NCBI GenBank assembly: GCA_000004985.1
Contig: GG738895.1
From: Naegleria gruberi
Lineage: Eukaryota
DNA: 64,000 bases
Reading direction: 5' to 3' (one strand)
In this document: positions 6,001 to 54,842 of the stretch, one piece after another
How the letters are laid out: every line of letters begins with the position of its first letter
How positions within the stretch are numbered: the stretch's first letter is position 1
The notes under the pieces: model-generated
What the model was told of the DNA's origin: nothing
The model's input: the letters and a program-made list of their open reading frames with translations, nothing else
The model's database searches: none
Made by a program: the position numbers and the translations under genes

Positions 6001-8797
6001 TGAAAAGGTGTTAAGAGAAAGTGAGAATGGTGTAGTATTATTTGTTGTGCCAAATAAGGCATTAGTCAATCAAGTTTATTGTGAAATCCAATCAAGATTG
6101 AAAAAGAATCAAAATAATATGGCCACAGCTGGTATGGCTACAGCAAATACAAGATTGGATGTATTTAATTCTCAATTACTTGTCATAGTACCTGCAATGT
6201 TGGAGATTTATTTAATGAGCTCAGCTCCAAAGGTTCTTGAGTGGAGAAAGAGAATTAAATATCTTGTCCTTGATGAAATACATTGTATAACAAGTGATGA
6301 TCAAGGTGAATACTATGAACATTGTATTCAATTATTAGATTGTCCTGTCATTGGATTATCTGCTACTTTGGGTAATTCTGAAAAATTTGCAAAATGGATG
6401 ACTCATGGATCGAGAGATAATGTACATTTAATTTATGAACCTGATTATAAAAGGTTCAATCCATTAGAATATCATAACTTTAATGGAACAGAAATTTCTC
6501 ATTCACATCCATGTGAATTATTTAATCCAAAATATCTAAATGAAAAGGAAATACAAAAATGTAGAATGATGACAATAGATGAATGTTTCCAATTAAAGAG
6601 AATGCTATTGGAAATAGATCAATCCGATGAGATGAAGGAAATAATCGAAACTCATGTTGGCTATCATTTATTGAATCGCAATAACCAATTGTCATGCATA
6701 ACTTGGAATGATCACATTCAGTACAAGCTTGGCTATAAACAATTAATGATCTACCTAGTGAATCATCCAACCAAACACAAAGTACTTTCCACTGTAGTGA
6801 GCTCATTACAAATGTCATACGCAGACGAAAATATTAAGCCAGTTGAATTTGTAGATGATATGATACACTTGATCATCAAAATGAAGAAGGAAAAGATGCT
6901 TCCCTCCATAGTATTCATTTTAGATAGGAGGATGATTGATCTTATGGTTAGAACCTTACTGCATAGAAATGTCTATTTATATGAAAATGAGGAAGATTGT
7001 CCGAGAGCTGATATTTTGAGACTAAATATTGATGATAATGATAGCGAAAAGACTATCAATAGGTATTATATTGATGCACTATCTCATGGAATTGGAGCTC
7101 ACTATGCTGGTATGAACGATGGCTATTTAATTGAAATTGAAAGACTCTTTAGAGAGAAGAAATTACCACTCATATTTACAACCTCCACTCTAGCTCTTGG
7201 TATTCATCTTCCTTGTAAAACAGTAGTTATGGCTGGAAGTTCCATTTATTTAACCAATTCACTTTTTAAACAATGTTGTGGAAGAGTTGGAAGAAGAGGA
7301 ATAGATCAGAAAGGTAAAGTTATTCTATATGGACTGAGTAAACCAAGAATTAGAAGATATTTACTGTCAGAACCTATTTCCATCAATGGAACAGTTGGCT
7401 TAAAACCAAGCTTCATTCTTAAAATGTTTACATCTCTTAATCAAGCTGAACAGGATTTAAAATCTGGTGAAAAAAATCCATTCCAAGATGCATTCCAAAG
7501 AGTATTAGAAAAACCATTATTTTCCATTAATGAAAATACAATGATTGCAACACAATCACAAATGTCATACTTTATCAGATTCCATACAGAATTTTTGAGA
7601 CAAGCAATGTTCCTTAATAAGAAATGTAATCCTCTTCAATTGAGTGGATTAATTGGACATCTCCATTATAGAGAACCTTTCAACTTTTTAATGGCACACT
7701 TTTTACAAACTCGAATTTTTGAAATGTTGGATATTAACAAGATTAGGGAACACGAATTTGATAAGATTATTTTAACCATTTTTACTTTGCTCTTTGCCAG
7801 ATATAGAGTTGGCAAACACATGTCGCAAAATACGTTGGACACTGACTTTACGAAAAACATGTCCAATATTTATAGGAAAATGATTGAGAAAAATGTTGAA
7901 TTCAATAATGAAACATTGGGAATTTATTCCAATTATGCTATTGCCTATTGTTTGAGTGAAAAATTGAAAGATGAAACCCTTCCACTTTCTGATTATTCAA
8001 CAATTATTTTAAAGGAATGTGAAAGTGAGTGCAAACTATTTACCGAATTGAAAAAGAGTCGATCTACAAATACTCACTCAATTTCTTCATTTTCTGCATT
8101 AAGTGGAAATGAAGATGGTAAATATCTAACAGAAGATCATTTCTTTTCCACTCTAAAGCATACAATTTCAATTAATAAGGCACACGTACCATTTACTAGT
8201 GCTTTGTCTGATGAAGACCATCCAATAAGTTGTTTCCTTTTGGATTACTATGGACATGGATCTTTGAAGATTCTCACAGAAGATCATCAATTTATCAACA
8301 TTGGTGCAAGCTCTAAACTTATCAGTGAAGCCATTAGAGATTTGAAGAAATTGAGAGCTAGTTTGATTAATGAAGAAATATTTTCATTTTCAATTTCAGA
8401 TTATGAACGAAAATTGGATAGTGGAGTTGTTTCTGAATGGTTAGTTAAGGAGTGTCCTTGGTTGAAGAATAATCCCAATTTAGAATTGATAACATTTGAA
8501 AAACTCTATAATTGGTTAACAAAAAACGTGCTAGAGATAGAGGTATCTGCACTGTTTCCTATTAGGGGAAATGGATTGAAGATGTTGAAAAGAAAAATTG
8601 AAAATAGATTTGCTCATCCAATTATTCAAAGTCTTGATAGAATCTTATCTAAACTTGAGGAAGGTGAAAGAAGAGAAAGACAACAATCTTTTAATGAAAG
8701 AAAAGAAATCAAACAAAAGAAACAATCATTGCGGAATGATTTGGATTCAGTTGAGAGTTTTAAGGGTATCAAGCATGCAAAATCAAATTTCATGTGA
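3053..8797 (+). CDS. Large DExH-box SF2 RNA helicase (Ski2-like or DDX60-like), 1914 aa, with a roughly 900-aa N-terminal region of unknown function.
   Basis: Helicase motif I PTSNGKT, motif II VLDEIHCI, motif V-VI region TSTLALGIHLPCKTVV and QCCGRVGRRG. Single uninterrupted ORF. Confidence 0.8.
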   Translation: MSTQTTKPSIVLFIRTSNSSKKQSIICDHIRKMTFGKPHEGNALLVLQVGSEPILLDDLVIKLKGWKIGQHVSQEQQPPHFVHTNKLRDCLQYSKGSTLKNSSCTFNALDVNACNQLEKGQHYAIRLSDVKLAFLPPSLDFDQVQVEIFKKDQLVGAISHSKQEAIDSHIEMSAKSLVSKWKTKSRYEHLDLIDGVGAADFIVINVDALISMALKKSNGLDWKEHGGQWLHLVWLCEKMLSLLKSRNVNFDLICFKNSIIMDGNFSFFVARMIVFNHLKKYCTFPCYLFDSLLSKEWEEYIRQANPSAVISSDCNYTNAYLNLMSNISYIVTNVEEGAKSVLGDVYSSAYLSWVRSVEPELDNLSKFLQNSSISSTLKIREFHQLENVMKQVNELQLHSNFTRLEVFLSSFLLFIENCKQDKVMESLFYGISMIYSVVLLDYLPIEARHCNLKETINELTQFMQELYKYCSMVLFEIDNFQDISCDLLDCRLIHWLILNFKPNNPFTLNQWIEIICELSPQPVKDSLNKIVLLLKERVSFDFDSDFEFSSIVSPYIRNYAYDYSNSKNRCTVLEVKNNFINTFCNLQSSSVIQEDSFKKPLFYDIYHFHSTRLITDTAEHLERNKYSTVDKTREKLNGMVELFKKVNKCKEIATEQVPKDLKFTEHVNEKNIMKIVSENYEKSQKPLNAIKEIIRKQESLVKKKEDEEETFSISELVSISLTIQENIQQFIPIMGKYSPKNNTTMVFGKKLYIQLLDSFKYQLPKSRKPIESKLLQRTVEGPTSKISLNELEEQKAMYRLYHVNSWIRFIYSYLMELNSLCLYFTEKEIAKELENLATSARMFGFCQTAQLIENEISPKKISKHEEDIIDPNYLFLYHFEKTAPTTPPLERFTKKKHNQILNELVQEKVLLIEKLKKDSSTKSREEISHEIKKVNVNIKLRESLTFTPDDWQNQLISYVNRDESVLVSVPTSNGKTFIVFYLIEKVLRESENGVVLFVVPNKALVNQVYCEIQSRLKKNQNNMATAGMATANTRLDVFNSQLLVIVPAMLEIYLMSSAPKVLEWRKRIKYLVLDEIHCITSDDQGEYYEHCIQLLDCPVIGLSATLGNSEKFAKWMTHGSRDNVHLIYEPDYKRFNPLEYHNFNGTEISHSHPCELFNPKYLNEKEIQKCRMMTIDECFQLKRMLLEIDQSDEMKEIIETHVGYHLLNRNNQLSCITWNDHIQYKLGYKQLMIYLVNHPTKHKVLSTVVSSLQMSYADENIKPVEFVDDMIHLIIKMKKEKMLPSIVFILDRRMIDLMVRTLLHRNVYLYENEEDCPRADILRLNIDDNDSEKTINRYYIDALSHGIGAHYAGMNDGYLIEIERLFREKKLPLIFTTSTLALGIHLPCKTVVMAGSSIYLTNSLFKQCCGRVGRRGIDQKGKVILYGLSKPRIRRYLLSEPISINGTVGLKPSFILKMFTSLNQAEQDLKSGEKNPFQDAFQRVLEKPLFSINENTMIATQSQMSYFIRFHTEFLRQAMFLNKKCNPLQLSGLIGHLHYREPFNFLMAHFLQTRIFEMLDINKIREHEFDKIILTIFTLLFARYRVGKHMSQNTLDTDFTKNMSNIYRKMIEKNVEFNNETLGIYSNYAIAYCLSEKLKDETLPLSDYSTIILKECESECKLFTELKKSRSTNTHSISSFSALSGNEDGKYLTEDHFFSTLKHTISINKAHVPFTSALSDEDHPISCFLLDYYGHGSLKILTEDHQFINIGASSKLISEAIRDLKKLRASLINEEIFSFSISDYERKLDSGVVSEWLVKECPWLKNNPNLELITFEKLYNWLTKNVLEIEVSALFPIRGNGLKMLKRKIENRFAHPIIQSLDRILSKLEEGERRERQQSFNERKEIKQKKQSLRNDLDSVESFKGIKHAKSNFM

Positions 8798-13066: not shown

Positions 13067-15172
13067 ATGCTCAATACTAGTAGTAATTATTTAAAAACCA
13101 AGCACTTTGCTCATCTCTTTGAAAATCTCTCCTTTGCCAATACATTTTGCAAGGAAACTCTTGCTGATCCCTTAGGGCAATTAAACAAGACTCGACAAGT
13201 GCTGGGCTCCATGTATTCATATGTGGATTCTACACCATTGGAGAAGGCTAAATATGCCTTTGATCCTAGTAGTGGACGTTTACTTCCCACTCGACAACAA
13301 GTTTCCGAAGACTTTGATGATCAAGATGAAGAGAGAAATAATAGAAGTAATATATTGTCATCTTCATCATCATCATCTGTGGGTATATTGAAATCTGCAA
13401 CATCTGATAAGGGAGTAACATCTGATTTTATTAATTTAATTGATTATAACAGGTATTCTCGTTTTGAATTTGTGATGGCTTCGAATAGTGTTGCAAAGGA
13501 ATGTTTGAATGGAGACTTGTTGTCGAGTGAAAGTGGTGATGAGAGAGGAGTGAATGGAGTGAATGACTTGATTACTGTGGAACATTTGATGAAACAACAG
13601 GAGAAGGAACATGATTTGGATAATTTTGTAAATATACTATCTGGATATGATCTTGTAAATAGTACTAAATATTATGCACATTGTTATGGTGGTTTTCAGT
13701 TTGGAAATTGGGCTGGTCAATTGGGTGATGGAAGAGCTATTAGTATGGGACAAGTTGAAACACCATTCACAGATATGGATTCGTCTGGTTTCGAGTTTAA
13801 CAATAGTAGAAATTCCTACAATTATATCAAACCAAAGAGATTGTGGGAGTTGCAATTCAAGGGAGCTGGTCACACACCATTCTCTAGACATGCAGATGGA
13901 AGAGCAGTATTGAGATCTTCTATTAGAGAATTTTTGGGTAGTGAATTTATGGACAGTTTGGGAATTGCTACAACGAGAGCATTCTCACTTGTGAGAAGTA
14001 AGGAAAAGGCAGTCCTCAGAGATGAATTCTATGATAACAATCCAAAATATGAATATGGAGCTATTGTATTGAGAGTTGCTCCAACTTTTGTCAGATTTGG
14101 ATCCTTTGATATTTTCAATTACAGATATCATCCTATCAATGAAAAGGAAAAGGCATTGGAAGAGAAGAAGAATATCGAAGTATTGGCTCGTTATGTCATT
14201 AAGAATCACTTCCCTCATTTGTGGATTAATGGTGATCTCACTTTGGAATTGAAGGAAAAGTTTTCAAAGGAGATTGTTAGAAGAACTGCCAAATTATGTG
14301 CTGATTGGATGTCTGTTGGCTTTGTTCACGGAGTTCTCAATACGGATAACATGAGTATTCTAGGATTGACTATTGATTATGGTCCATTTGGATTTGTTGA
14401 TTATTTTTCTGAAGATTTCGTACCAAATAACAGTGATAGTGACGGTAGATATCGTTACAAGAATCAACCAGCTATTGTCTTTTGGAATTTACAAAAGTTG
14501 ATGAGAGCTTTCACACCAACACTCCTTCCAGAGGAATACTTTGCCAAAGTTTTGAATGTTTATGCTCCACACTTTGAACATTACTACTTGATGAATTTTA
14601 GAAAGAAACTTGGTTTGATTTCTTCCAGTACAATTATTGACACTTCTGAAGATGTTACCAACTTTGACATGTTTGATGGCGATTCTGAGAATTTAAGAAA
14701 TGAAGATTGGGAGCTTATTGAGGGATTTTTGGCTTGGATGAATGAGAACAGAGCTGATTTTACCAACTTTTTCAGATTATTGTCAAATGTAAAGAAGGGA
14801 GCAGAAGTTTCTCAAGAGTTACTCGATAATTTACTTCAAACAAGAATGCACGCTGATCACACTCCATCTGAAACAACTGTATCAGAGCTCAAGAATTGGC
14901 TCTCCATTTATACCAAGAGACTTGAATCTGTTCCACTCTCCGATGAGGAAAGAAAGACTCAAATGGACAAGACTAATCCAAGATACATCTTGAGAAATTA
15001 CATTGCCCAAAAGGTAATCAAATCAGCTGAAGAATTTGACTATGGTCCACTCTATGAATATTACAATGTTCTGAGAAATCCATATGATAATCATTCTACA
15101 GAGTTTGAAGAAAAGTTTGGTGGTAATGCACCACTTTCTTCTCGTTGTTTGAAATTGAGCTGTAGTTCTTAA
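13067..15172 (+). CDS. selO: Protein adenylyltransferase SelO (UPF0061/YdiU family), Cys-form.
   Basis: Hallmark motifs YYAHCYGGFQFGNWAGQLGDGRA and HGVLNTDNMSILGLTIDYGPFGF. Typical length of 701 aa. C-terminus ...CLKLSCSS. Confidence 0.85.
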   Translation: MLNTSSNYLKTKHFAHLFENLSFANTFCKETLADPLGQLNKTRQVLGSMYSYVDSTPLEKAKYAFDPSSGRLLPTRQQVSEDFDDQDEERNNRSNILSSSSSSSVGILKSATSDKGVTSDFINLIDYNRYSRFEFVMASNSVAKECLNGDLLSSESGDERGVNGVNDLITVEHLMKQQEKEHDLDNFVNILSGYDLVNSTKYYAHCYGGFQFGNWAGQLGDGRAISMGQVETPFTDMDSSGFEFNNSRNSYNYIKPKRLWELQFKGAGHTPFSRHADGRAVLRSSIREFLGSEFMDSLGIATTRAFSLVRSKEKAVLRDEFYDNNPKYEYGAIVLRVAPTFVRFGSFDIFNYRYHPINEKEKALEEKKNIEVLARYVIKNHFPHLWINGDLTLELKEKFSKEIVRRTAKLCADWMSVGFVHGVLNTDNMSILGLTIDYGPFGFVDYFSEDFVPNNSDSDGRYRYKNQPAIVFWNLQKLMRAFTPTLLPEEYFAKVLNVYAPHFEHYYLMNFRKKLGLISSSTIIDTSEDVTNFDMFDGDSENLRNEDWELIEGFLAWMNENRADFTNFFRLLSNVKKGAEVSQELLDNLLQTRMHADHTPSETTVSELKNWLSIYTKRLESVPLSDEERKTQMDKTNPRYILRNYIAQKVIKSAEEFDYGPLYEYYNVLRNPYDNHSTEFEEKFGGNAPLSSRCLKLSCSS

Positions 15173-15180
15173 TAAACTTT

Positions 15181-16743
15181 TTATTTACATTTCTCTAGAA
15201 TTTTATCGAATATTTGTGAGAGCTTTGGTACCAGATCTTCTGTGTCCAATGAATTTGTTATAATGATTTCGCAAACTCTATTTCCTAAATCCACTTCCTT
15301 GAATTTGTTAGTAATTGAGGTCAAGTAAAAATCCGCATCTAGGTTGTTATTATCATTTCCTATGGAAAGTAACGAGTTCAAAATTGTAACCTTATTTGGT
15401 GAGTCTAACTTTTTCTTGAATCTATCAACATTAGTTAATACGAGAAACACTGGTTGATTCTTGATCGATTCATTCGTAATCCAATCTTTAAATGTTGTCA
15501 AATCCTCAATAAATCTATTAGTAGTAATATCTTCCCAACAAACTAGGTCAAACTCTGAAAGAGATGCCACATAAACAAGTGCTTGGCAGCATTTCATTAC
15601 TGCAGACCATTTTTTCCTTTCGGTACGAACGCCTGCTAAGTCCATCAGAGTTATTGACTTGTCCTTGTAGGTATAAATTCGAGAAATGACTCCAGTTGTT
15701 CGTTGTTGGAATACAATGTAGTCTCTCTCGGTAGCTCTGTATTCTGAACTTGTTAATCGTTCATATTCTGAAATATAATACTCAATACAATTTCCAATCG
15801 AATAATTCAAATTCTTATAGTCGTGAATGTTATCCAAAATTTCTTTAACTCTTGAATCATGTAAAATATCATACCATGTTGCAGCATCTATCACCTTGTC
15901 ACCAATTAATTTTTCAGAAGCGTGCTTTGAGATGAAATTTTTCATTTTCTGACAAGTTGCCCAATCGAGAGCAACATCACCATTTGATTCCTGTTCTTTG
16001 AGTATTCCTTCAAAGAGAGCTCTCAATACTTCCACCAAATTTTGTTGTATGAATGTGGCTGAAAGATTAACAGCCTTCTCAGCATATTTTCCTCCAATAA
16101 TCTTTTCGCATTGTTTGAATAGAGTACTCTTTCCACTTCCTTCACATCCAAACAAGGCAATCTTGAGGTCGGAATCTTTTGGCACTTCATTGGCCTTCCT
16201 TCCAGAGAGCCATTGCAACAAGTTACTTCTCGGAGATGATGGTGGAGACATTGTTGGAGGAGTTTTTGATTTCTTATTGTTGAATGGAATATTTCTTGGC
16301 GAAGTACTTCCAGAAGATGACGATGAGCCTTCATCCATTATACCACTATTCGGAACAAGCAAATAATTAGCACTCTTAATCCCCTCGTCTGATGATGACG
16401 AAGAGGATGCTGGAGAAGCAGAGGAGTGACCCATCAATCGATTCCCAGCCGAAGTTGTCCTTCCAAAACTGACGAGACTTTCATTATTATTACTACTACT
16501 GGAAGCAGCGTTGTTGTTTGTATTTTTTCGTTGCTGTAAATTTCCAAGCGAGGGAGAAGTTGGAATGGCGGGAGAAGTGTTGGTAGAGCTTGGAATGAGA
16601 AATTCTTGGACATCTTGTTTGGTGGTTCGACTCTTGAATGATGGAAGGGAAAATTTACGTTTAGTTTTGGACATTTTTTTGCATTGAGAGTGATGAACTA
16701 TTTTTTTGAAAGGGAACTTTAAATGCAATCTGTCAAAAGTCAT
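15181..16743 (-). CDS. Heterotrimeric G-protein alpha subunit with a Ser-rich N-terminal extension. Divergent: the switch II Gln is replaced and NKxD is altered.
   Basis: G1 KIALFGCEGSGKSTLFKQ. Switch I RTTGV. G3 DLAGVRTERKKW, where canonical is DVGGQRSERKKW. G4 region LVLTNVD, where canonical is NKxD. Confidence 0.75.
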   Translation of the reverse strand: MTFDRLHLKFPFKKIVHHSQCKKMSKTKRKFSLPSFKSRTTKQDVQEFLIPSSTNTSPAIPTSPSLGNLQQRKNTNNNAASSSSNNNESLVSFGRTTSAGNRLMGHSSASPASSSSSSDEGIKSANYLLVPNSGIMDEGSSSSSGSTSPRNIPFNNKKSKTPPTMSPPSSPRSNLLQWLSGRKANEVPKDSDLKIALFGCEGSGKSTLFKQCEKIIGGKYAEKAVNLSATFIQQNLVEVLRALFEGILKEQESNGDVALDWATCQKMKNFISKHASEKLIGDKVIDAATWYDILHDSRVKEILDNIHDYKNLNYSIGNCIEYYISEYERLTSSEYRATERDYIVFQQRTTGVISRIYTYKDKSITLMDLAGVRTERKKWSAVMKCCQALVYVASLSEFDLVCWEDITTNRFIEDLTTFKDWITNESIKNQPVFLVLTNVDRFKKKLDSPNKVTILNSLLSIGNDNNNLDADFYLTSITNKFKEVDLGNRVCEIIITNSLDTEDLVPKLSQIFDKILEKCK

Positions 16744-20507: not shown

Positions 20508-23084
20508 ATGCCAACTAAAATTCAACCATTCAATTTGCAACCAACAAGTTCAGAAACCAAGATTCGTTCCACAGCACAACTCTCCACACAAACATCGTGC
20601 TTTGAATTTACAAAGGAAGGAGGAGGAATTGCATCTTCTGATTATGATCCAGATCATGATTTGGAAGAACCACTCAATGGAGTGGAAATGACACAAACTA
20701 CATGTGCTCAATGTATTTCTATTCGGTTATTTATTATCATTCTGATGACTTCCTTGTTATTGGTGTGCTCTATTTTAATTTGGCTCACTGGATTTGTCAT
20801 GTCCCAGCAAGCTCTTAATTCCATGTCGAGTGAATTAATGGCCACCTATGGACAATCTATCATTCGCTTCATGGATGGTCAAGTAAGACCTTACATTGCA
20901 GCCACACACTCAGTAGCCGACGATTACAACATTGGACTTGTTGGAAGAGCTCCACCATTGTCCTATCTCTACAAAAAGTACTCGACCTTCAAACCATACG
21001 GTATTGGTTTGGTATTTGATGATGAGTTGAATACTTTCAATACTTTTGGTGTTCCACCGAATGAAGTAGCAGCTTACTACCAAACTCCAAAGGGACAACC
21101 AATTTTGAATACATGGAGTGTGAATACTACCAGCCCCAATGTCACAATCAATGGATTGTACAAGATTACCAGCAATTATCTCACCACAAAGCAAAGTTAT
21201 TGGATTACCGCCTTTGGTTTATTTGAAAAACATCCAGAAATGGAGGGCGTCTTTGGCTCTTCAATTTATTACGTGCCAGGGGGTGGTTACACCATGTATT
21301 ATTGTGCAAAATTGTATGATCCTTCTATTTATTTCAATACTGGTAATAAGGTGGTTGTTGGTGTGGCCAAGACCAATTTGGCTGTAAATATCATTCAGAG
21401 ATTCCTCTCAAAAGTAACCTTATTCGGTACAGGTTACTTACTTGTTGCAGAGGATAATGATTTAGTCATTGGAGGTAATATCAATACCACTGCTTTGGAT
21501 AAGGTCTCCCGTGTATCCATGTTTGATTTGGAAGATCGTGATTCTGGCAAGTTGATGCAAAAGATTTCGATCACATACGGAGATTTGAACATGGCCCCAG
21601 CTCACTTTGAAATGAACAGTGTGGGAGTTGATTATTTCATATCGAGATTTGAATTTCAATTATTGAACTTGCAATGGCATGTGTTCATGGTTCTGAAAAG
21701 GGATGAAGTTCAAGAAGCACTCAATATAAGTTCTGGTGTTTCGGTAGCTGTCACATTTATCATTATAATATTTGGTGTGGCAATCAGTTTTGCTATTGGT
21801 GTCATTATCACAAGACCATTCAAAGTTCTGGAACGTGAATTTGGAAAAATCAAAACAATGGACCTTGAACATGTAATGATTTCACAAAGCAAACTCAAGG
21901 AAGTAGACATTATATATGGATATCTCTTTGAAATGACAGCATGGCTCAATGAAATTAAGAGTTTCATCCCAGAGAGCGTCTTTCTCCAGCTAAAGAATGC
22001 CAAGCATGAGGAAACCAAACGAGTTCAACTTTTTGAAAAGAAGCAAATCAGTGTAACTGAGCTGCAATCCAAGAATAGTAGAAATTTCTCTGCTATTGGT
22101 TCACACTTTTCTGGTTTCTCTAGAAATTGTCCAGATCCAGGTGCATCCAACTTGTTCAAGATGGGTCTCAATGTGAAAAAGACTGCAGTGATTAGAATTA
22201 CACTTCCTGGGTTTTCCAAATCCTATTCGGCAGCTATCATTTCACACGTCTTTTCAAAGATTGTTTCTGGTCTATCTACCATTTCTAAGGCTATCCAAGC
22301 CGATTTTTCAATTAGCTCTGTTGAGGAATTCCAAATCATTGTGAGTGCTGATGAATCACCAAACAAAAAGACTATTAACATTCAAAGTTTGGATGCCGCA
22401 TTGAAATTCTCTAAATTGATTCAAACCATCAATGATACTTCCCAACTCAATATCAAGTGCTGTATTGGTGTGAGTGTTGGTAAGGCCAATGTTGGTAATT
22501 TGGGTTGTGCCAGTTTTAGATCATTTAGTGTGGTTGGTGGTATTTTAGAAAATGCCAAGCGCCTCAGTAAGCTGGCTAACTTGCTTAATTGTAAGATTTT
22601 GACAGACCCTGGATGTTTGGACTCTCAAACAAGACAATACTTTGTTTCCAGACCAGTCGAAAGATTACTTATGGAACCACCAATTTATGAAAACTGTCAA
22701 GCAACAGTTTCTGGATGCATTTCAACAGTATTCGAAGTTGAAAAGGAAAGATCAGTAGAAAGTGATGAATGGATGTATGAATTGCAACAACACAAGGCCA
22801 ACGAAAAGTTCTCTGATTTTTGCAAGTACTTTGTCTTTGATCAGGATTATTCACAATTAGGAAATTCATTACTGGTCGAAACTTTAAAGCAAACTGAACA
22901 ACAACTCAAAGATGAAGTGGAAATCCAATTGTCAGGTGATGTGATTGCTCTTCGGTTATTGAGAAGTATTCAAACATTTATTGGAAGATCTCACGATTTA
23001 GAAAAGCACCACGTGAAACTTTCAGATGCCTTGTTGAATTATTATACTAAACTTGATACTTCCATGTTAGAAGTATTTCCATAA
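20508..23084 (+). CDS. Receptor-like two-TM membrane protein with a degenerate class III cyclase-homology domain (pseudo-cyclase).
   Basis: Predicted TM at about aa 70-95 and about aa 395-425, flanking a roughly 300-aa extracytoplasmic domain. C-terminal domain aligns to the cyclase CHD: AVIRITLPGFSK vs AVLFSDIVGFT (first metal Asp is Leu), QIIVSADES, CCIGVSVGKANVGNLG, FSVVGGILENAKRLSK (Asn and Arg retained). Confidence 0.6.
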   Translation: MPTKIQPFNLQPTSSETKIRSTAQLSTQTSCFEFTKEGGGIASSDYDPDHDLEEPLNGVEMTQTTCAQCISIRLFIIILMTSLLLVCSILIWLTGFVMSQQALNSMSSELMATYGQSIIRFMDGQVRPYIAATHSVADDYNIGLVGRAPPLSYLYKKYSTFKPYGIGLVFDDELNTFNTFGVPPNEVAAYYQTPKGQPILNTWSVNTTSPNVTINGLYKITSNYLTTKQSYWITAFGLFEKHPEMEGVFGSSIYYVPGGGYTMYYCAKLYDPSIYFNTGNKVVVGVAKTNLAVNIIQRFLSKVTLFGTGYLLVAEDNDLVIGGNINTTALDKVSRVSMFDLEDRDSGKLMQKISITYGDLNMAPAHFEMNSVGVDYFISRFEFQLLNLQWHVFMVLKRDEVQEALNISSGVSVAVTFIIIIFGVAISFAIGVIITRPFKVLEREFGKIKTMDLEHVMISQSKLKEVDIIYGYLFEMTAWLNEIKSFIPESVFLQLKNAKHEETKRVQLFEKKQISVTELQSKNSRNFSAIGSHFSGFSRNCPDPGASNLFKMGLNVKKTAVIRITLPGFSKSYSAAIISHVFSKIVSGLSTISKAIQADFSISSVEEFQIIVSADESPNKKTINIQSLDAALKFSKLIQTINDTSQLNIKCCIGVSVGKANVGNLGCASFRSFSVVGGILENAKRLSKLANLLNCKILTDPGCLDSQTRQYFVSRPVERLLMEPPIYENCQATVSGCISTVFEVEKERSVESDEWMYELQQHKANEKFSDFCKYFVFDQDYSQLGNSLLVETLKQTEQQLKDEVEIQLSGDVIALRLLRSIQTFIGRSHDLEKHHVKLSDALLNYYTKLDTSMLEVFP

Positions 23085-23237: not shown

Positions 23238-23618
23238 ATGAATACAACCTTTCCCTTCGAAATAAATTACACATCTTGTGGCAAAGATCATGTTTTTAAA
23301 TTGGGCAAAAAGTCAAATGTTCTAATAGATCTGCAAGATTTTCCCAGCTCGATGAATTTCCAACTCAGAGTCATCAATTTCACTGGTGGCTCCTCTCTTG
23401 GTCAAGTAATTTTTGGTGAACGAGAGTTTCATGATGCTGGTTTTCACTTGGTTTTGGATTTTGAAAAGATTTACAGAGTTTGGGTAGAGAACAGTGAGGT
23501 GAAGGTCGAGTTGGTGCTTATTTCAGAGGAAGGAGAGCAAAGAGTGGTTTCTGAGTTTTTGGGAGAGTTGAATGGAAGGGGTGGGATTAGAAAGTGGTGT
23601 TGTGGAAAGTGGCTGTGA
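23238..23618 (+). CDS. Small hypothetical protein (126 aa).
   Basis: ATG-initiated ORF in an intergenic gap with codon usage like its neighbours. No recognisable motif. Confidence 0.35.
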   Translation: MNTTFPFEINYTSCGKDHVFKLGKKSNVLIDLQDFPSSMNFQLRVINFTGGSSLGQVIFGEREFHDAGFHLVLDFEKIYRVWVENSEVKVELVLISEEGEQRVVSEFLGELNGRGGIRKWCCGKWL

Positions 23619-23841: not shown

Positions 23842-26421
23842 ATGAACAACAATTCCATCATTCAAAGTGATGATGTGGTGATGGAAAAACAACTCGATAA
23901 TAACAACAAAAATCTTCGGAATGAACAACAACAACAAGTAATAATTTCTCCTTCCGATAAAGATGATTGTGTTGTTGCTTCTTCTTCTTCTGTATCATCT
24001 GATAATAATACAACAACAATAGTTATTGGAAAATTGGAGGGAACACCTTGTGTGAATAATAGTAATAATAATAGTGGAAATATTGTGGTTGATCCGAATA
24101 GATTGTCACCTCATACATCATCACATCTCTCGATAGAATCGAGTCTTGAACAAAATATGGATGATTATATTGCGGATGATGATGGAAATGCATCGAATAA
24201 TAACAAAACGAAAAAACATCATCCAGTCGAATTTTTGACAAAACGAATGAAGAGTTTTTCAAATTCTGATGTTTTGAGCTTTTTCAAAAAACCATCACCG
24301 AGAAGTGCTTCACCAAATAATGTGCATGAAACTAATAGTTCGGAACTCTTATCTTCTCCCAGTGAAACAGAAAAGATTTCAACAACTCAACTATCAAAAC
24401 AGGAAAATACAATGTCAATTTCCTCTTCTTCTGTATCCTATCCTACTACCACCAAATTGATTCCACCAAAAGTGAAAAGAGAAAAATCAACAGGAAATAT
24501 CTACACTTCTTCATCTGATGATGAAATAACATCAACAATTCAACACCAGCTTCAGGAAAAGAAGAGAAAGAGTAGACAAATTCCACCACTACCTCTCAAC
24601 GAGACTAAGATAAAGAGAATTGCATTGAAAACCATTTACAACATGATGGTTCTTCAACCGAGTATTACAGATAGGGTTCTTCCTCTAATTTTGATAGATG
24701 TCAGATCTTCTGAGAAGGACTACATTTCAAAAGTTAGCCCAACCATTGGTCCCCAACACAATAGTCACAATAGTTTTTCTGTATCAGAAATGAGTAGCAT
24801 CCTTTCTTCCCAAATTGAAAGTGAACTTATATTCGATCAAATGAGGCCTCGATCAAGAAGTTCAGCTACTCCACCCACTCAACCAATAATTTCACCAGGT
24901 ACTCCCCTCGGTACAAAGGTGCCACTCCTCAATATTAGCTCTATCTCTCCAGACCAAAAATTTAAAGGTATTATGGGTAGCCCTAAATCAGGTTACAACA
25001 CTCCAGTGGCCAGTCCACTAATGAGTCCAAGAACTTCTTCACTCGGAATTTCTCAACATGTCCAATGGTCAATTCATTTCTATTTACCAGATCATATCAT
25101 TGATCATATACCAATTGATGATTTGAACAAGGAAAATGTAGCTAGTATAATTCACATGATTGAAACATCTAACACATGCATTGAGAAGGATTTGTACAAA
25201 GCCAGATTTGCTTGGAGGAAAATGTCAAATGTTGTTGTAATGGCTGGTAGCTCGAGAGATGAACACAGAGCCAAATGGCTCCTTAGAGTTTTACAATTGG
25301 AGGGGAAGTCCTATAATCTATACTCACTCCCACATGGTCTTAATTTCACTCATTTCGAAGCTAAATATCCCTTCTCCATTACTTCTTTCGATTTTGTTGA
25401 ATTTCAATTACCAACCCATATTTTCAAGAATATTTATTTGGCAAGTTATAGAGTTTTAACACAGGAACGAGGAATAGAAGTGCTCATAGCAAAGAGGTTG
25501 AACATTAAGAGGGTTTTGAATTGTGCAAAGGAATGTAAATGTGTAATACCCAACAAATTTCTCTCAGAGGACTCTCCAACAAAGCCAGTCCAAAATAGCT
25601 CTCAAACTCTCTCAAGATCAGAGAGCTTTTCCAAGACTGGAATTTCCACCTCTCAAACCCCAAAGATTTCCTATCTCCATCTTCTTCTTGATGATTTTGA
25701 TCCAAAGCACTGTTACTTTACCGCAGAACAAATGAAGGAAAGTGTCCTCTTCATTAATCAATCATTGAAAAACAATGAAAACATCTTGATTCACTGCCAA
25801 GAAGGTAGATCTAGATCAGTAACTATCATTTGCCTCTACATGATGATTAATATTGGATGGAAATTGTCATACTCATTGGAATTTATGAGATCTCAAAAGC
25901 CCACCATTTCTGTCCATCCAACCTTCCTTCTTGAACTTCAAGCCATTGAGGATTACATTAGTGACAAGATTGAAAAAATCAAAGGAAACAGCACTATTTC
26001 CAGTGATTCTCTCGACAACATGGAAGGAATGATAAAAGTTGATAGTATTCTCACCATAACAGACGATCCTGAACCTCCTGAAAGATACCTCCTCAAATTC
26101 ACACCACTGTACGAATATTCCTCCACCGATGATCTTTCCTCGGTCAGCACCAATGCATCCCCAAGAGTTTCACCTCGTCTCATCAGCAATAGAAAATTAA
26201 AGAAAAGCTCGGTAGACAAATTGAATGTCTCTTTAATTTTCAATAGGGCCAAAAGTGCCACACTATCCTTACCTGATTCTCCACTCCTTCTAGACCCCTC
26301 TACCTTATATCTTGATGATTCAGTATTGAGCACATTCTTGGATGAAATTGGACACAATGTCATTCGCCCATTCATTGAAAATTTATATTCATCCAATGAC
26401 CAATTACAGCAATTACGATAA
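23842..26421 (+). CDS. Dual-specificity (MKP-type) protein phosphatase with a long S/N-rich N-terminal region.
   Basis: Catalytic loop ILIHCQEGRSRSVTIICLYMM (HCx5R). Upstream rhodanese-like segment VLPLILIDVRSSEKDY. Confidence 0.75.
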   Translation: MNNNSIIQSDDVVMEKQLDNNNKNLRNEQQQQVIISPSDKDDCVVASSSSVSSDNNTTTIVIGKLEGTPCVNNSNNNSGNIVVDPNRLSPHTSSHLSIESSLEQNMDDYIADDDGNASNNNKTKKHHPVEFLTKRMKSFSNSDVLSFFKKPSPRSASPNNVHETNSSELLSSPSETEKISTTQLSKQENTMSISSSSVSYPTTTKLIPPKVKREKSTGNIYTSSSDDEITSTIQHQLQEKKRKSRQIPPLPLNETKIKRIALKTIYNMMVLQPSITDRVLPLILIDVRSSEKDYISKVSPTIGPQHNSHNSFSVSEMSSILSSQIESELIFDQMRPRSRSSATPPTQPIISPGTPLGTKVPLLNISSISPDQKFKGIMGSPKSGYNTPVASPLMSPRTSSLGISQHVQWSIHFYLPDHIIDHIPIDDLNKENVASIIHMIETSNTCIEKDLYKARFAWRKMSNVVVMAGSSRDEHRAKWLLRVLQLEGKSYNLYSLPHGLNFTHFEAKYPFSITSFDFVEFQLPTHIFKNIYLASYRVLTQERGIEVLIAKRLNIKRVLNCAKECKCVIPNKFLSEDSPTKPVQNSSQTLSRSESFSKTGISTSQTPKISYLHLLLDDFDPKHCYFTAEQMKESVLFINQSLKNNENILIHCQEGRSRSVTIICLYMMINIGWKLSYSLEFMRSQKPTISVHPTFLLELQAIEDYISDKIEKIKGNSTISSDSLDNMEGMIKVDSILTITDDPEPPERYLLKFTPLYEYSSTDDLSSVSTNASPRVSPRLISNRKLKKSSVDKLNVSLIFNRAKSATLSLPDSPLLLDPSTLYLDDSVLSTFLDEIGHNVIRPFIENLYSSNDQLQQLR

Positions 26422-26607: not shown

Positions 26608-28631
26608 ATGTTTGGAATCTTCTCAGCATCATCTTCCATCAGTAGTGCTGCTACTGCTGCTGTTGCGGGAAGAAGATCCTACTATAAACAACATCAGGAA
26701 CAAATTCATCGTCATCATCAACGTGGCAAATTCCTTCCAACAAGAACAACAACAATTTGTCTCCTCCTTCTCATAATACTTCTCCAATTACTTTCAGAGG
26801 CAAATGTTGTTCATTCCTTGACCTTTTCTAAACGTTTTTGGAATGCCAATTGTACATCGGAGACGTATCTTCGTGATTGTGGTGAAGAATTAATTTGTGA
26901 TACAAGTATTGGAAAGTGTTCCTTCTGTGCCAATACAACACAATGTTCAACAGTATTTGGATCAATGAGACAATGTAGAAGATCAATATTGGCAGATCAG
27001 TTGCAGGATTTATATCCAAGTTTGATCACCGATCCGAGAGCTCCTATCCATGGAGGTGTTTGTTATCATAAGGATTTATTTCCACAATTTTCATATTTGG
27101 ATGCTATTGCAACTGTGATTTCATTCCTCGGAAGTGTCTTGTCAACAATGGCTGGAATTGGTGGAGGTGGTTTGATTGTTCCATTGATGGAAACTGCAGG
27201 TCAATTTCCTCCTCAAATGGCTGTTGGTATTTCAAAGACAATGATTTTTGGTGCTTGTAAGTACAGTGTTTGAATGATTTGTATTCGAGTTGAGTTGTGC
27301 GAATATTTATGATGATAATGATTGTGTGTGAAATAGCCATTTCAAATTTCATTGCTCTTTCATTGAAGAGACATCCACACGCTGATAGACCACTTATTAA
27401 TTATGATGTGGCACTTTTACTTCAACCTACTTCATTGGTGGGTGTCTTGGTTGGTGTTTTATTGAATAGTATGACTCCTAATTGGCTCATTGTCTTGTTG
27501 AGTGCTATTATTTTGACAATTGTCAGTTTGACAACATTTGTCAGAGCTGGTAGAATGTGGAGGGCCGAAAGTGCAGCCAAATTAGTTGGTTCAAACAATG
27601 GTTCATCTGCAAACTATCATCAAATTACAGATAATGGAGTAAATAATGATACTATTATTTCAGATGACGAAGACGAAACATTTGACAGACCAAAAAATAC
27701 CAACAATGAAAATGTATTGGAAACTTCCCTATTAGGAGAAGATGAATTGGAACAAATGGAACAGGAAAATATTGAAAAGGAGGAAAAGAAACAAATTGCC
27801 AGAAAAGTCTTACACAATGAAAAATCCACTCCATTCACAAAGCTTTTCGTTTTGGTTTTATGTTGGGTTATTGTATTTATTTTGACAATTGTCAGAGGTG
27901 GCCATGGTGCTCCAAGTGTTTTCCACATTGATCACTGTTCTGTTTGGCATTGGGTCTTATTTGCTGCCATGTTTCCAATAATGATTGCTGTTTCATATAT
28001 GGTTGGTGTCTATCTTGTTAGAAAACACAAAGAAAGATCAGCACTCGTTAGCCATGGATACAGATTCGTAGCTGGAGATCCTCACTGGAGTGTTGGAACT
28101 GTAATTCTCTATCCAGTTTTTTCTGCTCTTTCAGGAGTAATTGCTGGTATGCTTGGTGTTGGAGGTGGAATGATTAAATCACCAATGCTTCTCTATCTAG
28201 GATTGGATCCACTTGTTGCAGCAGCTACTGCTTCATTCATGATGTTGTTCACATCCTCAATTTCATCCATTCAGTTCGTTATTTTGGGAACTGTTCCATT
28301 TGATTATGGTCGTAAGTATTATTGTGTGCATAATTAATATTTATTCATTTATTATCATAATAATTTATTGCTACTTTAGTATGGTATTTCGTTTTTGGAT
28401 TATTGTAAGTAGAAATTGTAATGTTTTGTAATATTAATTGATTTTAGTGCTGGTATGGTTGGTCAGATATTGATGCATTTCGTATTCCAGAAAGGAAGAA
28501 AATCAGTGCTTGTCTTTATTGTGGCCTTTATCATTATTGTTTCAACATTATGCATGACTGGTTTTGGTATTTACAATGCTGTCATTATGTTGCAAAACAA
28601 TATGTATATGGGTTTCCACTCAATTTGTTAG
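26608..28631 (+). CDS. TauE/SafE-family (DUF81) anion transporter, four exons.
   Basis: Exons 26608..27256, 27337..28311, 28380..28404 (a 25-nt micro-exon) and 28448..28631. Introns begin GTAAGT, GTAAGT and GTAAGT and end in AG. The two characteristic GxGGG half-motifs are GIGGGGLIVPLM and GVGGGMIKSPML. The spliced reading frame is continuous to TAG. Confidence 0.6.
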
Positions 28632-34139: not shown

Positions 34140-34871
34140 TGAGAGATCAGTGTATGGGATTTCAGTGTATTTGGTCCATGGGTTTTGAATTGGGAAACTA
34201 AATGTTGATGTATTTAGTGTTTTTTGTTTTTCATATTGTTGTTTTTATAATTTCCAAAATATTGATGATGGTCAAGTGATAATTGTTTGCGCGGTATTCC
34301 AATATGACAAGAAAGTGTACATCAAGATGATATGTTGACGATGAAATTAATTTCCAACAATAAAACACGACCGTGATGATGATTAAAAATTTTCTCTTCT
34401 TGGCTTTTTCTACTTACGCTTCATAAACGTTGAATTCACCTCTCTTATCAGCAACAGCAACAGTGTCGACAACATCTGGAACAACTGAAGCAGGTAAAAT
34501 TCCTTTAGGGAAGAAGTTCTTGTTGAGGACGAGCATTTCGTTGACGAAACGATAGCCGGTAGCGGCAAGACCACGGAGCATTTTTTTTGAGTTGAAGCGA
34601 TTTTACAATAGTGAGCATTTATGGTTTTAATAGAGAACATAACAGCTGCTAAAGCTAGTAAGAACAATATTATGGCAATCACAACAACAATTGTTTTTCA
34701 ATAATTTCCAATATTCAATGATGACAAGAAAGTGAGAGGGAGTTTTTATTCATATTTTGTTTTAATTAAAACAAAATTGATGAGAGGCTTTCGTTCCGAA
34801 TTTTTTTTTACGTTAGGTTTGTGATTGAATTCCTACAAACACTGGAAGCCTCTAAAAAACAAACAAAAAAA

Positions 34872-37800
34872 ATGTCTTCACGTTATCAAAATGCTGGTGG
34901 AGGAGGTAATTACAATAATAGACAAGGACCACACCAGAAAGTGTTATGTGTAGCTGAAAAACCAGAGGCTGCCAAACAAATTGCCACAATTTTAAGTGCA
35001 GGAAAATTTCAGAGGAGAGAAGGAAAATCCAAGTTTAACAAGATATTTGAATTTGAATATAGAATGAATGGTGTTGTTGTAACAATGTCAGTCACATCGG
35101 TTTTAGGTCATTTGATGGAGTTGGGTTTTGATCCGAAATTAAAATCGTGGACATCTTGTGATCCGATTACTTTGATGGATCCTGCAACACCTGTATTTCG
35201 GAATGTGCCAGAGAAGAATTTAGAAATTCAACAAAACCTAGAACAAGAAGCAAGATATGCCACAAAATTATTGCTGTGGCTCGATTGTGATAGAGAAGGA
35301 GAAAATATTGCATTTGAAGTGATTGAAGTTTGCAAGAAGGTAAATCGAAGCCTTTCCATTGAAAATGATTCAATTCTCAGGGCAAGATTTTCAGAGTTTA
35401 CAGCTGCAGCAATCAATAGGGCAATTAGAAATTTGGAAAGACCAAATGTATTGGATAGTATGGCTGTAGATACGAGACAGGAATTGGATTTGAGAATTGG
35501 AGCCTCTTTTACTCGTTTTCAGTCACTCAGACTCAAAAAGAAGTTTCAAGGAATTACAGCAGATTATATTAGTTATGGACCATGCCAATTTCCAACATTG
35601 GGATTTGTGGTAAAGAGAGATTTAATTATCAAGAACTTTGAATCGGAATCATTTTGGACTTTAAATTGTACACACGATATGGGAGAGGAAGGCAAGGCTC
35701 AATTTCTATGGAAGAGAGGTAGGCTTTTTGACCAATTGACTTGCTTGGTCATTTACGAGTTGTGTGTTGAAGCTCAAAGGGCTAGAGTGGTCAATGTGGA
35801 AAAAAAAAGAAGATACAAATACAGACCAGATCCATTGAATACAATTGAATTGCAAAAATTGGCATCTCAGAAATTGAAAATGGGTTCACACGAAACTATG
35901 AAGGTTGCTGAATCATTGTATAATAAGGGTTTTATCAGTTATCCTAGAACAGAAACTAACAATTACAATCAATTCCAGGATGATGATTTGAAACGACTTG
36001 TAAATGAACACACATCAAATCCAACATGGGGTGGTTATGCTTCAGATCTATTGAATGGAGGTTATCAAAAGCCACCTAGTGGAAAGCAAGATGATAAGGC
36101 GCATCCTCCAATTCACCCTCTCAAAGGTGATTGTAATTCCAATGATTCAAAGGAACAAGCTCTCTATGAATTGATTGCAAGACACTTTTTAGCATGTTGT
36201 TCAAAGGATGCTGTCGGTGCCGAGACTAAGGTTATCATTTCAATTGCCAACGAAGAGTTTACTTGCTCTGGATTGATGGTTGAACAAAAGAACTTTTTGG
36301 AAATTTGGAAGTATGATAGATGGTCGGATAAGAGTATTCCAGTTTTCAATGCAGGTCAAGAGTTTATCCCAACCTCATTATTGATGGATCATGGTGAAAC
36401 TCGTCCACCTCCTCATCTTTCTGAATCAGATTTGATTTCTGCTATGGATTCTAATGGTATCGGTACTGATGCCACTGTTGCTCAACACATTAAAACCATC
36501 CAGGAGAGAGGCTATGTCATCAAGAAAGGAAATAGATTTGAAGCCACCAACTTGGGAATGGCACTCTTGCAAGGATATGATCTCATTGGATACGAATTAT
36601 CAACTCCTAATTTGAGATCAAAGATGGAAAAGGATATGCTTAGTATTTCAAAAGGAGAACAATCCAAGGAAGCAGTCATTCACCAAAGCTTGTCCATGTA
36701 CAAACATGTATATATTCAAATTTGTAAATCAGCTTATTTATTGGATAAGGCGGTACAACAACATTTTCCAACTCTTGGTGAAGGACAGAGCAGAGTTTTA
36801 GGAAGAGGATTTTCACTATGTTCCTGTAAGAATCCAATGGACTTGAAGGAGCAGGATGGAAATAATTTCCTTCATTGTAAAAATTGTAGTGATTCATATC
36901 CTCTTCCTTCTAAATCAGAATATGAAAGTATTGAAGATGTTTGCCCAATTTGTAATTTCCAGATACTTAACATTATCACACAAAAGAACACTTCATACAA
37001 GCTGTGTCCTCACTGTTTCAATAATCCCCCAGAAATTGAAAATTCAAATGAATCTTTTGCTAATGGATTCAAATGCTTTAACTGTACATTTACTGGTTGT
37101 AAATATTCGAGAAAGAAGGATGCCGTAGTAAGGAAATGTCAGAAATGTTCCAACAATTTAGTAGTAAGGCAACGAAAGAATGATACCTCCCTTTATATTG
37201 GATGTAAGGGGTTCCCAAATTGTAAATCTGCAGTGTGGCTTCCAAAGTCAATCGAAAAGGCTGATTTGACAACTGAAAAGTGCAACAGGTGTAGTACTCG
37301 TTCGGATACTGTGTATAGATTGAAATTTACATTTGCCCAAGGAACACTTCTACCTCCAGGTGTTAATAGAGAACATACAACTTGTGTATTTTGTGATCAG
37401 GACTTTGATGAGGCTTTCAATATTAATTTGAATTCCCTTAATGGTGATTCAGGTGGTGCTTCTTCCCATGGAGTGCTTGTACACAACTCTACATCGAATA
37501 ATAGAAACATGCCAAATAGAAGTCCAACAATTGCTGGTGGTGGTTATGGAAATAGAACAAGTCCAGTTGGGGCAACAGGGAGAAATATTGCTGCAAGACA
37601 GAATAATACACCACCACCTAATCAAATGACTTTGGATAGAATGTTGGGCAAGAGAACAAGAGTTGATAATAATAATGGAAATAATAATAGCAACCCACCT
37701 CCTCAAAATTCTTACCAAAGAAACAATACATCTCCAAGAAATCAATTCGGAAACAATCATGGCGGTAGTGGATCTGGTGATGTTGTATGTACAAATTGTA

Positions 37801-37919
37801 GCTCTGCACCAGAAATTTTCACTTGTAAGCAGGGAGAAAACCAAGGGAGACAATTTTACAAATGTCCAAATAAGGATAAGGACGAGGCTTGTAAAAAGTT
37901 TTTCAAATGGGTTGATTAA
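34872..37919 (+). CDS. TOP3: DNA topoisomerase III (type IA) with C-terminal zinc-ribbon and GRF zinc fingers.
   Basis: TOPRIM start VLCVAEKPEAAKQIA. Active-site Tyr motif GFISYPRTETNNY. Multiple C4 zinc ribbons. Terminal GRF finger CKQGENQGRQFYKCP. First ATG at 34872. Confidence 0.85.
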   Translation: MSSRYQNAGGGGNYNNRQGPHQKVLCVAEKPEAAKQIATILSAGKFQRREGKSKFNKIFEFEYRMNGVVVTMSVTSVLGHLMELGFDPKLKSWTSCDPITLMDPATPVFRNVPEKNLEIQQNLEQEARYATKLLLWLDCDREGENIAFEVIEVCKKVNRSLSIENDSILRARFSEFTAAAINRAIRNLERPNVLDSMAVDTRQELDLRIGASFTRFQSLRLKKKFQGITADYISYGPCQFPTLGFVVKRDLIIKNFESESFWTLNCTHDMGEEGKAQFLWKRGRLFDQLTCLVIYELCVEAQRARVVNVEKKRRYKYRPDPLNTIELQKLASQKLKMGSHETMKVAESLYNKGFISYPRTETNNYNQFQDDDLKRLVNEHTSNPTWGGYASDLLNGGYQKPPSGKQDDKAHPPIHPLKGDCNSNDSKEQALYELIARHFLACCSKDAVGAETKVIISIANEEFTCSGLMVEQKNFLEIWKYDRWSDKSIPVFNAGQEFIPTSLLMDHGETRPPPHLSESDLISAMDSNGIGTDATVAQHIKTIQERGYVIKKGNRFEATNLGMALLQGYDLIGYELSTPNLRSKMEKDMLSISKGEQSKEAVIHQSLSMYKHVYIQICKSAYLLDKAVQQHFPTLGEGQSRVLGRGFSLCSCKNPMDLKEQDGNNFLHCKNCSDSYPLPSKSEYESIEDVCPICNFQILNIITQKNTSYKLCPHCFNNPPEIENSNESFANGFKCFNCTFTGCKYSRKKDAVVRKCQKCSNNLVVRQRKNDTSLYIGCKGFPNCKSAVWLPKSIEKADLTTEKCNRCSTRSDTVYRLKFTFAQGTLLPPGVNREHTTCVFCDQDFDEAFNINLNSLNGDSGGASSHGVLVHNSTSNNRNMPNRSPTIAGGGYGNRTSPVGATGRNIAARQNNTPPPNQMTLDRMLGKRTRVDNNNGNNNSNPPPQNSYQRNNTSPRNQFGNNHGGSGSGDVVCTNCSSAPEIFTCKQGENQGRQFYKCPNKDKDEACKKFFKWVD

Positions 37920-54800: not shown

Positions 54801-54842
54801 AAACAAGTCACACAAGAATGTGTCTAGAAATTGTGTTGACAT
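45857..54842 (-). CDS. Giant protein of about 2940 aa from an uncharacterised family, with a GEGKSS P-loop-like motif (DUF3638/DUF3645-like). Rebuilt from four ORF-track fragments.
   Basis: Exons 54842..51563, 51522..50504, 50436..49045 and 48997..45857, all in phase. The introns are 40 nt (GTAAGT..AAATAG), 67 nt (GTACAA..TTATTTTCAG, weak donor, least certain) and 47 nt (GTATGT..TTGCAG). The NMGEGKSSVIIPM motif opens the last exon. Confidence 0.6.

Follow-up and report, generated by a model that had tools for sequence, protein, structure and literature searches.

We analysed a gene of Naegleria gruberi at positions 20508-23084 (+ strand) of a 64,000-nucleotide stretch of contig GG738895.1 (assembly GCA_000004985.1; henceforth the window), and found that it encodes a receptor-like membrane protein whose C-terminal domain is predicted to fold as a class III cyclase while most of the canonical catalytic positions hold incompatible residues. 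In our reading, to which we give a probability of roughly 60%, the product is a homodimeric, two-pass plasma-membrane receptor derived from bacterial-type dCache_1-HAMP receptor cyclases, in which the cyclase-homology domain (CHD) has turned into a pseudo-enzyme and conformational signalling has been kept. An earlier inspection of the nucleotide letters (the sequence-only reading) had already proposed that the membrane protein is receptor-like and that its CHD is degenerate and probably inactive; this core idea holds, but the degeneration goes further than proposed, as the substrate-specifying Lys and the transition-state Asn are lost too. While the dCache/HAMP/CHD receptor-cyclase architecture is itself already known, and the identity proposed earlier is largely right, what the analysis adds is a large family with three defining derived characters and the correction of one residue assignment.

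The reading frame runs without interruption from ATG to TAA (858 codons plus TAA in the list of open reading frames, ORFs) in a eukaryotic window (~33% G+C). Its 858-aa product matches an NCBI N. gruberi "predicted protein" model with 100% identity across 100% of the length, and the start codon is conserved in the N. lovaniensis homologue. Given the identity to this full-length protein model, the gene is a single exon and its coordinates agree with those of the sequence-only reading. Two short ORFs that overlap the gene on the opposite strand (20910-21194 and 21710-22018, - strand) were dismissed as mechanical.

Domain architecture and the cyclase fold

The protein shows the domain order TM1 (the first transmembrane helix), dCache_1-like ectodomain, TM2, HAMP, transducer-like helix, disordered low-complexity linker, CHD and helical tail. 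The corresponding features are listed below with the evidence used to delimit them, where AF2 denotes AlphaFold2 and pLDDT its predicted local distance difference test score.

20508-23084 (+): complete receptor-like pseudo-cyclase gene, 858 aa (ORF list; NCBI identity; N. lovaniensis start codon)
20508-20720 (+): predicted N-terminal cytoplasmic segment, aa 1-71, little conserved (family alignments; low pLDDT)
20721-20798 (+): TM helix 1, aa 72-97 (Kyte-Doolittle window mean 2.8; helix in the AF2 model)
20799-21731 (+): dCache_1-like double-PDC sensor domain, predicted extracytoplasmic, aa 98-408 (sub-threshold Pfam match; family profile; co-linearity with the cyanobacterial protein P0154)
21732-21809 (+): TM helix 2, aa 409-434 (hydrophobicity 2.85; net-positive C-terminal flank)
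21810-21947 (+): HAMP domain, aa 435-480, in which P437 and E465 hardly vary across the family (alignment to the HAMP domain of P0154)
21948-21998 (+): cyclase-transducer-like helix NEIKSFIPESVFLQLKN, aa 481-497 (alignment to canonical cyclases; highest conservation in the family)
21999-22145 (+): low-complexity Ser/Lys/Asn-rich linker, aa 498-546, a hypervariable family-specific insertion (spacing; lowest conservation; pLDDT <50)
22146-22742 (+): degenerate class III CHD, aa 547-745
22461-22538 (+): β4-β5 arm (tongue) of the CHD, aa 652-677, with G663, N664, G666, R671 and G677 (entropy ranking; strands aa 652-667 and 670-676 in the AF2 model)
22743-23081 (+): C-terminal helical domain, aa 746-858, opening with E754-W755 in 'DEWMYEL' (AF2 helices; motif conservation)

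The first TM helix lies where the sequence-only reading had put it (~aa 70-95); the second exists as well, but had been placed slightly early (~aa 395-425). Between them lie ~310 aa, in agreement with the extracytoplasmic domain of ~300 aa suggested before. An N-in, ectodomain-out, C-in topology would fit both the net-positive flank after TM2 and the three N-x-S/T sequons of the ectodomain (N206, N211 and N326).

We found that the sensor module could be recognised through the family rather than through the single sequence. Specifically, the Pfam dCache_1 model scored 16 bits on the query (aa 249-393; cut-off 45), whereas a profile of 95 family members searched against 5.8 billion sequences matched cyanobacterial dCache_1-HAMP-PAS-GGDEF-EAL proteins at E=2e-37. 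The query is co-linear over aa 227-394 with the Pfam dCache_1 region of the cyanobacterial protein P0154, and its aa 430-479 follow the Pfam HAMP domain of P0154 (367-417) residue for residue, P437 and E465 included. Both elements of a dCache_1-HAMP sensor module are thus in place, i.e., a double-PDC domain between two TM helices and a HAMP domain directly after TM2. Repeat homologue searches (with a word pre-filter) returned the same six proteins together with bacterial dCache/HAMP-GGDEF proteins.

The C-terminal domain gave no match to the Pfam cyclase model PF00211 at E<=10 when the query was searched alone (gathering score 21.9 bits), and relatives of the query scored 16-28 bits, straddling the cut-off. 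With a 6-sequence profile, all 13 of the 13 matches in the PDB were class III cyclases (best, OaPAC, E=0.003), and hhalign aligned the family with the CHD of a PAS-domain cyclase encoded at the start of the window with 85% probability (E=6e-6). We then relied on an AF2 model of aa 540-858 built from 86 sequences (pLDDT 93.3, predicted template modelling score 0.91), which superseded a poor full-length model from a 6-sequence alignment (pLDDT 46). When the domain model was compared with the PDB by Foldseek, the top 50 of 50 hits were class III adenylyl or guanylyl cyclases (E ~1e-10, TM-score up to 0.79), and the model has the order β1-α1-α2-β2-β3-α3-β4-β5-α4-β7-β8 expected of a CHD. The predicted structure decisively assigns the class III cyclase fold to this domain. 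The CHD of the sequence-only reading is therefore upheld by profile and predicted fold; the Pfam search with the single sequence, which taken by itself would speak against a CHD, is overruled by them.

The same Pfam result, together with an annotation that says just 'predicted protein', could be taken to mean that the gene is a decaying relic or a mis-annotation, or that the domain is no CHD at all. We give this explanation next to no credence, given the intact 858-codon ORF, full-length homologues in four species, strong conservation of individual columns (G663 and G666 in 133 of 134 sequences, R715 in 120 of 134) and the AF2 model with its pLDDT of 93.

Residues at the catalytic positions

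To map the catalytic residues, we aligned canonical controls (P0071, P0127 from Willaertia, P0170 and the PAS-cyclase of the window) to the hidden Markov model (HMM) of the family. The controls' transition-state Asn and Arg each fell in a single column (681 and 685, respectively) and the Asp of their GD motif in column 606 or 607. The Asp of the FxD motif fell in column 565 for P0071, P0127 and P0170; the alignment of the PAS-cyclase begins past that column. The positions in the query are:

22200-22202 (+): T565, first metal-binding Asp position, lost (column of the canonical controls' FxD Asp)
22323-22328 (+): E606-E607, second metal-binding Asp position, acidic, with a register ambiguous by one residue (control columns; β3 starts at E607 in the AF2 model)
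22548-22562 (+): E681...R685 on helix α4, positions of the transition-state Asn (lost, Glu) and Arg (present in the query) (three alignments)

Loss of the first metal-binding Asp, claimed by the sequence-only reading, is borne out: the HMM and hhalign alignments place T565 of 'IRITLPGFS' at this site and no Asp. Nor do relatives, with one exception, retain it, column 565 being occupied mainly by Arg (25), Lys (18), Thr (12) and His (9), with Asp in only 1 of 101. The second metal site (606/607) is still acidic in 78 of these 101 relatives. For the substrate-specifying pair (Lys with Asp/Thr for ATP, Glu with Cys for GTP) the query has I602/S603 at the Lys position and S674 at the Asp/Thr position.

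The transition-state pair needed correction. The sequence-only reading had seen both Asn and Arg in ENAKRLSK and taken them as a sign that the overall pattern is kept. The Arg stands, as R685, but the Asn position is E681, and N682 lies one residue out of register, which leaves that argument resting on an off-by-one alignment. The assignment of Asn to E681 and of Arg to R685 was obtained in three independent alignments (HMMER against OaPAC, hhalign against the PAS-cyclase, and canonical paralogues on the family HMM); the register of α4 is anchored by G677 (+6 = A683) and L686, and N682 pairs with a canonical hydrophobic residue. Across the family, Asn occurs at column 681 in 10 of 101 relatives and Arg at column 685 in 5, and none has both. 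The γ-phosphate 'KGK' loop of the canonical paralogues reads 'MEPP' in the query.

Taken together, four of the six canonical catalytic positions hold incompatible residues (T565, I602/S603, S674 and E681), and the only canonical remnants are R685 and the acidic E606/E607. The query has neither the Asp pair, nor the Asn-Arg pair (N-x-x-x-R), nor a substrate-specifying pair, and a complete half-set (Asp and Asp, or Lys, Asp/Thr, Asn and Arg) is absent from the query and from all 101 relatives. Because mutations of the metal-site Asp residues abolish activity in characterised class III cyclases, the CHD is very probably catalytically dead, i.e., it would make no cyclic nucleotide.

An unorthodox active cyclase that uses non-canonical residues is correspondingly hard to credit. 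Some class III cyclases (Rv1900c, Rv0386) do tolerate unusual substrate-specifying residues, and the second metal site is still acidic; against this, the first metal Asp is Thr in the query and Arg or Lys in 43 of 101 relatives, no member has the Asn/Arg pair, 'KGK' has become 'MEPP', and an entropy ranking of the family columns revealed no alternative, family-specific cluster of conserved polar residues.

Alternatively, the pocket could bind ATP, GTP or a cyclic nucleotide without turnover, in the manner of PDB 6YII or of degenerate GGDEF receptors. The phosphate-loop 'PGFS', R685, R671 and E606/E607 of the query would suit such a sensor. We nevertheless consider it improbable, as the pocket positions (565, 568-570, 602/603, 674, 681 and 685) are little conserved, which is not what a conserved ligand site would look like, and as N664, R671 and R715 are also present in canonical paralogues and so are ancestral rather than newly acquired. 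Of the precedents, the 6YII entry is a class III adenylyl cyclase-like ATP-binding protein of P. aeruginosa with the chain label 'Transcriptional regulator', which we take to be a soluble bacterial protein without a transmembrane sensor, whereas the query is a dCache-HAMP membrane receptor. Degenerate GGDEF receptors (LapD, FimX, PelD) and the kinase-homology domain of receptor guanylyl cyclases belong to different domain families and are functional analogues only.

Enzymatic parallels are C1/C2 of mammalian membrane adenylyl cyclases and soluble guanylyl cyclase alpha/beta, where part of the catalytic set is missing from one half and a pseudo-symmetric, regulatory site results; structures of these types (1cs4, 1ab8, 3uvj, 3et6 and 6pas) are among the structural neighbours of the CHD model. 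By contrast with the query, which has neither complete set, their halves keep complementary sets that make up one active site. Judged by its residues, the query cannot complement a partner cyclase half, because neither of its catalytic half-sets is complete. One metagenomic protein, P0164 (1990 aa, ENA), carries a HAMP domain and two CHDs, of which the first lacks Asn/Arg and the second lacks the first metal Asp (Thr) and keeps Asn/Arg; by these residues it is a C1/C2-like tandem pseudo-heterodimer, unlike the fully degenerate family of the query.

A family of degenerate receptors and its conserved parts

We carried out an exhaustive HMM search of 1.84 billion representatives, which returned 1,792 proteins at E<=1e-3, of which 425 reached E<=1e-10 and 70 reached E<=1e-30. 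Among the best 150 of the 1,792 matches, 137 carry the same domain and only three have canonical cyclase motifs. The dead-CHD family comprises at least 130 clusters at 50% identity, with several species pooled. Taxonomy was looked up for 30 representatives, which included at least 10 paralogues from separate N. gruberi scaffolds, at least 8 proteins of N. lovaniensis and at least 4 family members from Willaertia magna. N. fowleri, metagenomic contigs and two EukProt transcriptome-derived proteins were also represented. One of the EukProt family members is labelled Artemidia motanka, a diplonemid; the prefix 'Hpha' presumably stands for the diplonemid Hemistasia phaeocysticola. The diplonemid proteins have degenerate catalytic residues and the motif 'EWMYQL'. 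The "undescribed receptor type" of the sequence-only reading is thus not a singleton, being one of at least 10 paralogues in N. gruberi; the family extends to N. fowleri, N. lovaniensis, Willaertia magna and diplonemids, a spread that speaks for an ancient family that has been maintained. In UniProt, several paralogues are automatically labelled 'Guanylate cyclase domain-containing protein', and the query and most N. gruberi members just 'predicted protein'; literature searches, whose coverage was incomplete, yielded no published description of the degenerate family.

Three hallmarks define the family: variable, non-catalytic residues at the catalytic positions, an insertion before strand β1, and the motif EW(M/L)YEL in the tail. 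Mean pairwise identity is distributed unevenly along the protein:

Ectodomain: 17.9%
HAMP: 28.5%
Transducer-like helix: 37.1% (highest)
Linker: 14.0% (lowest)
CHD: 23.3%
Tail: 21.7%

Such a pattern marks a receptor family whose inputs have diversified while the apparatus for transmission and output has been conserved, and the best-kept elements are those by which active enzymes couple the sensor to the cyclase. In two metagenomic members (P0048 and P0119; JGI, 1153 and 1169 aa) an ankyrin-repeat region lies N-terminal to the dCache/pseudo-CHD body, which shows domain accretion at the predicted cytoplasmic N-terminus.

Canonical cyclases with the same architecture provide the reference for what is derived. 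A Naegleria 'bacterial-type adenylate cyclase', the single dCache case found with Pfam models, was described by Upadhyay et al. 2016 (PMC4822843), and a TM-HAMP-cache1-NCIII subfamily related to N. gruberi genes by Ebenezer et al. 2019 (PMC6366073). These cyclases, M. tuberculosis Rv2435c, P0127 and P0071 are bacterial-type dCache_1-HAMP-CHD receptor adenylate cyclases, and the query family has the same order from TM1 to the helical tail. P0071 and P0127 score 214-219 bits on the family HMM over the sensor and 113-135 bits over the CHD with its tail, and the 'GNxG...R' of the arm and the Arg of β7 are common to them and to the query family. However, D, K, D, T, N and R are all present in the canonical proteins (PF00211 56-88 bits), unlike in the query family; the canonical proteins lack the family's insertion of 25-110 aa between transducer and β1; and the tail of P0071 and P0127, although similar in length, is without the EW(M/L)YEL motif.

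The best-conserved stretch, the helix NEIKSFIPESVFLQLKN, directly follows HAMP; in the alignments its counterparts are 'KYVPAEVV' and 'KYVPDVVI' in canonical paralogues and 'ILPDSVA' in the PAS-cyclase. We take its site to be the position of the cyclase transducer element (CTE). In canonical cyclases, this element contacts the β4-β5 tongue through its loop and thereby transmits the signal (PMC5995499). From the CTE Pro to the metal-Asp column we counted 77 aa in the query and 51-142 aa in 83 relatives (median 79), compared with 27-32 aa in 5 canonical cyclases; the insertion before β1 is hypervariable and Ser-rich, and may be a regulatory site, e.g., for phosphorylation.

Within the CHD, the catalytic positions belong to the least conserved columns. 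When the 176 columns were ranked by entropy, the first six places went to G663, G666, R715, G677, N664 and R671, all of which except R715 lie on the β4-β5 arm; by contrast, the columns of the first metal Asp, the Asn and the Arg ranked 141, 156 and 165. The helical tail (helices aa 755-772, 786-806, 812-833 and 838-843 in the AF2 model, pLDDT >90) carries the near-invariant family motif, with E754 and W755 invariant in 34 sequences. Profile searches with the tail found no Pfam family common to more than one member and no specific PDB relative; they returned only generic designed helical-repeat, 14-3-3 and Fis1-like matches at E>=8e-4, for which reason we did not call the tail a tetratricopeptide repeat.

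On this basis we propose the following mechanism. A small ligand would bind the variable ectodomain, and TM2, HAMP and the transducer helix would relay the signal, as they do in active cyclases, until it reaches the arm of the dead CHD dimer, with the Ser-rich linker looping out between the transducer helix and strand β1. The output would be a conformational change of the platform formed by the CHD and its tail, read by a putative cytoplasmic partner common to the family. That a ligand-binding dCache receptor drives a dead CHD dimer in this way, with the CHD and EW tail as the output surface for a common partner, has in our view slightly less than an even chance of being right. More tentatively still, the family may be an ancient, Discoba-wide receptor class (Heterolobosea and diplonemids) in which a dead cyclase dimer and the EW helical domain form a new output, independent of cyclic nucleotides, driven by HAMP and transducer and read by a dedicated cytoplasmic partner. 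If so, few pseudo-cyclase families would be larger, and each Naegleria genome, that of the pathogen N. fowleri included, would encode at least ten receptors, each tuned differently.

Several points weigh against the pseudo-enzyme receptor that we favour. Its inactivity is predicted from residue identity; the query still has R685, an acidic residue at the second metal position and, in the phosphate-binding loop, G568-F569-S570, which could allow weak nucleotide binding; and the disordered insertion of 50 aa might uncouple HAMP from the CHD rather than loop out.

The conservation of the arm also bears on a different role, namely that of a dominant-negative or regulatory decoy, in which the dead CHD would heterodimerise with competent dCache-HAMP cyclase paralogues and silence or tune them. 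In favour of this, no part of the dead CHD is better conserved than the dimerisation arm, the lineage also has canonical paralogues that carry this sensor module (P0127 from Willaertia, and P0071), and Naegleria encodes at least 81 cyclases, a count reported without comment on activity (PMC9928731). Yet the query, lacking both the Asp pair and the Lys/Thr/Asn set, could not form even one active site in a heterodimer, leaving pure inhibition as the only possibility; the paralogues are just ~20-25% identical; degenerate members outnumber canonical ones by roughly 130 to 3 among the best 150 matches; and HAMP and dCache receptors are homodimers as a rule. We therefore regard a decoy as unlikely.

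Should the pseudo-enzyme receptor reading be right, it would bear on how cyclase inventories are read. The N. gruberi genome paper reportedly lists 108 cyclases, and Naegleria 'cyclase' counts have been used to argue for very rich signalling by cyclic AMP and cyclic GMP. If dead-CHD sequences are among those counted, the published figures may exaggerate enzymatic capacity and conceal a receptor class of its own. Divergent dCache ectodomains are also far commoner in Naegleria than the single Pfam-based case (PMC4822843). The family can be regarded as a natural experiment on the roles of the CHD beyond catalysis, in which selection kept the transducer helix and the β4-β5 arm. It has members in the brain-eating amoeba N. 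fowleri, for which surface receptors that humans lack are of practical interest.

Neighbouring genes in the window

The first gene of the window, which the sequence-only reading had singled out as an intact PAS-cyclase, is indeed one (PF00211 178 bits, plus PAS), with the motifs DMVGFT, GDAYF and NIASR. Its reading frame is open at the start of the window, so the gene is truncated there, and the mechanical ORF starts with TTG at 119.

2-2551 (+): PAS-domain canonical class III cyclase, comparison gene, all catalytic residues present (PF00211, PAS; frame open from position 2)

We found no support for the suggested partnership between the pseudo-cyclase and this neighbour: the two CHDs belong to different subclasses, and adjacency in a eukaryotic genome is no evidence of a functional link. 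In a eukaryotic locus without operons, we likewise rejected functional links to the genes for a Gα subunit and a dual-specificity phosphatase. The former, a heterotrimeric G-protein alpha subunit gene (15181-16743, - strand; PF00503 184 bits), lies ~4 kb upstream of the pseudo-cyclase; the latter (23842-26421, + strand), immediately downstream, encodes a protein of 859 aa that is rich in Ser and Asn and has its dual-specificity phosphatase domain close to the C-terminus. Between the pseudo-cyclase and the phosphatase-domain gene sits a 126-aa ORF (23238-23618) without a Pfam match. The window contains no other member of the pseudo-cyclase family.

Further along, two adjacent ORFs (26608-27273 and 27297-28337, + strand) both match TauE/SafE sulfite-exporter membrane proteins and probably represent a single gene interrupted by a short intron or a frameshift. 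Two large ORFs on the - strand (45857-49003 and 51516-54842) carry DUF3638/DUF3645 and DUF6606; these two and the 466- and 369-aa ORFs that separate them on this strand may all be exons of a single giant gene. Three other neighbours, all on the + strand, are ordinary housekeeping genes, which encode a 1914-aa DEAD/ResIII helicase (3053-8797), a SelO protein adenylyltransferase (13067-15172) and a GRF zinc-finger-bearing type IA topoisomerase (34821-37919).

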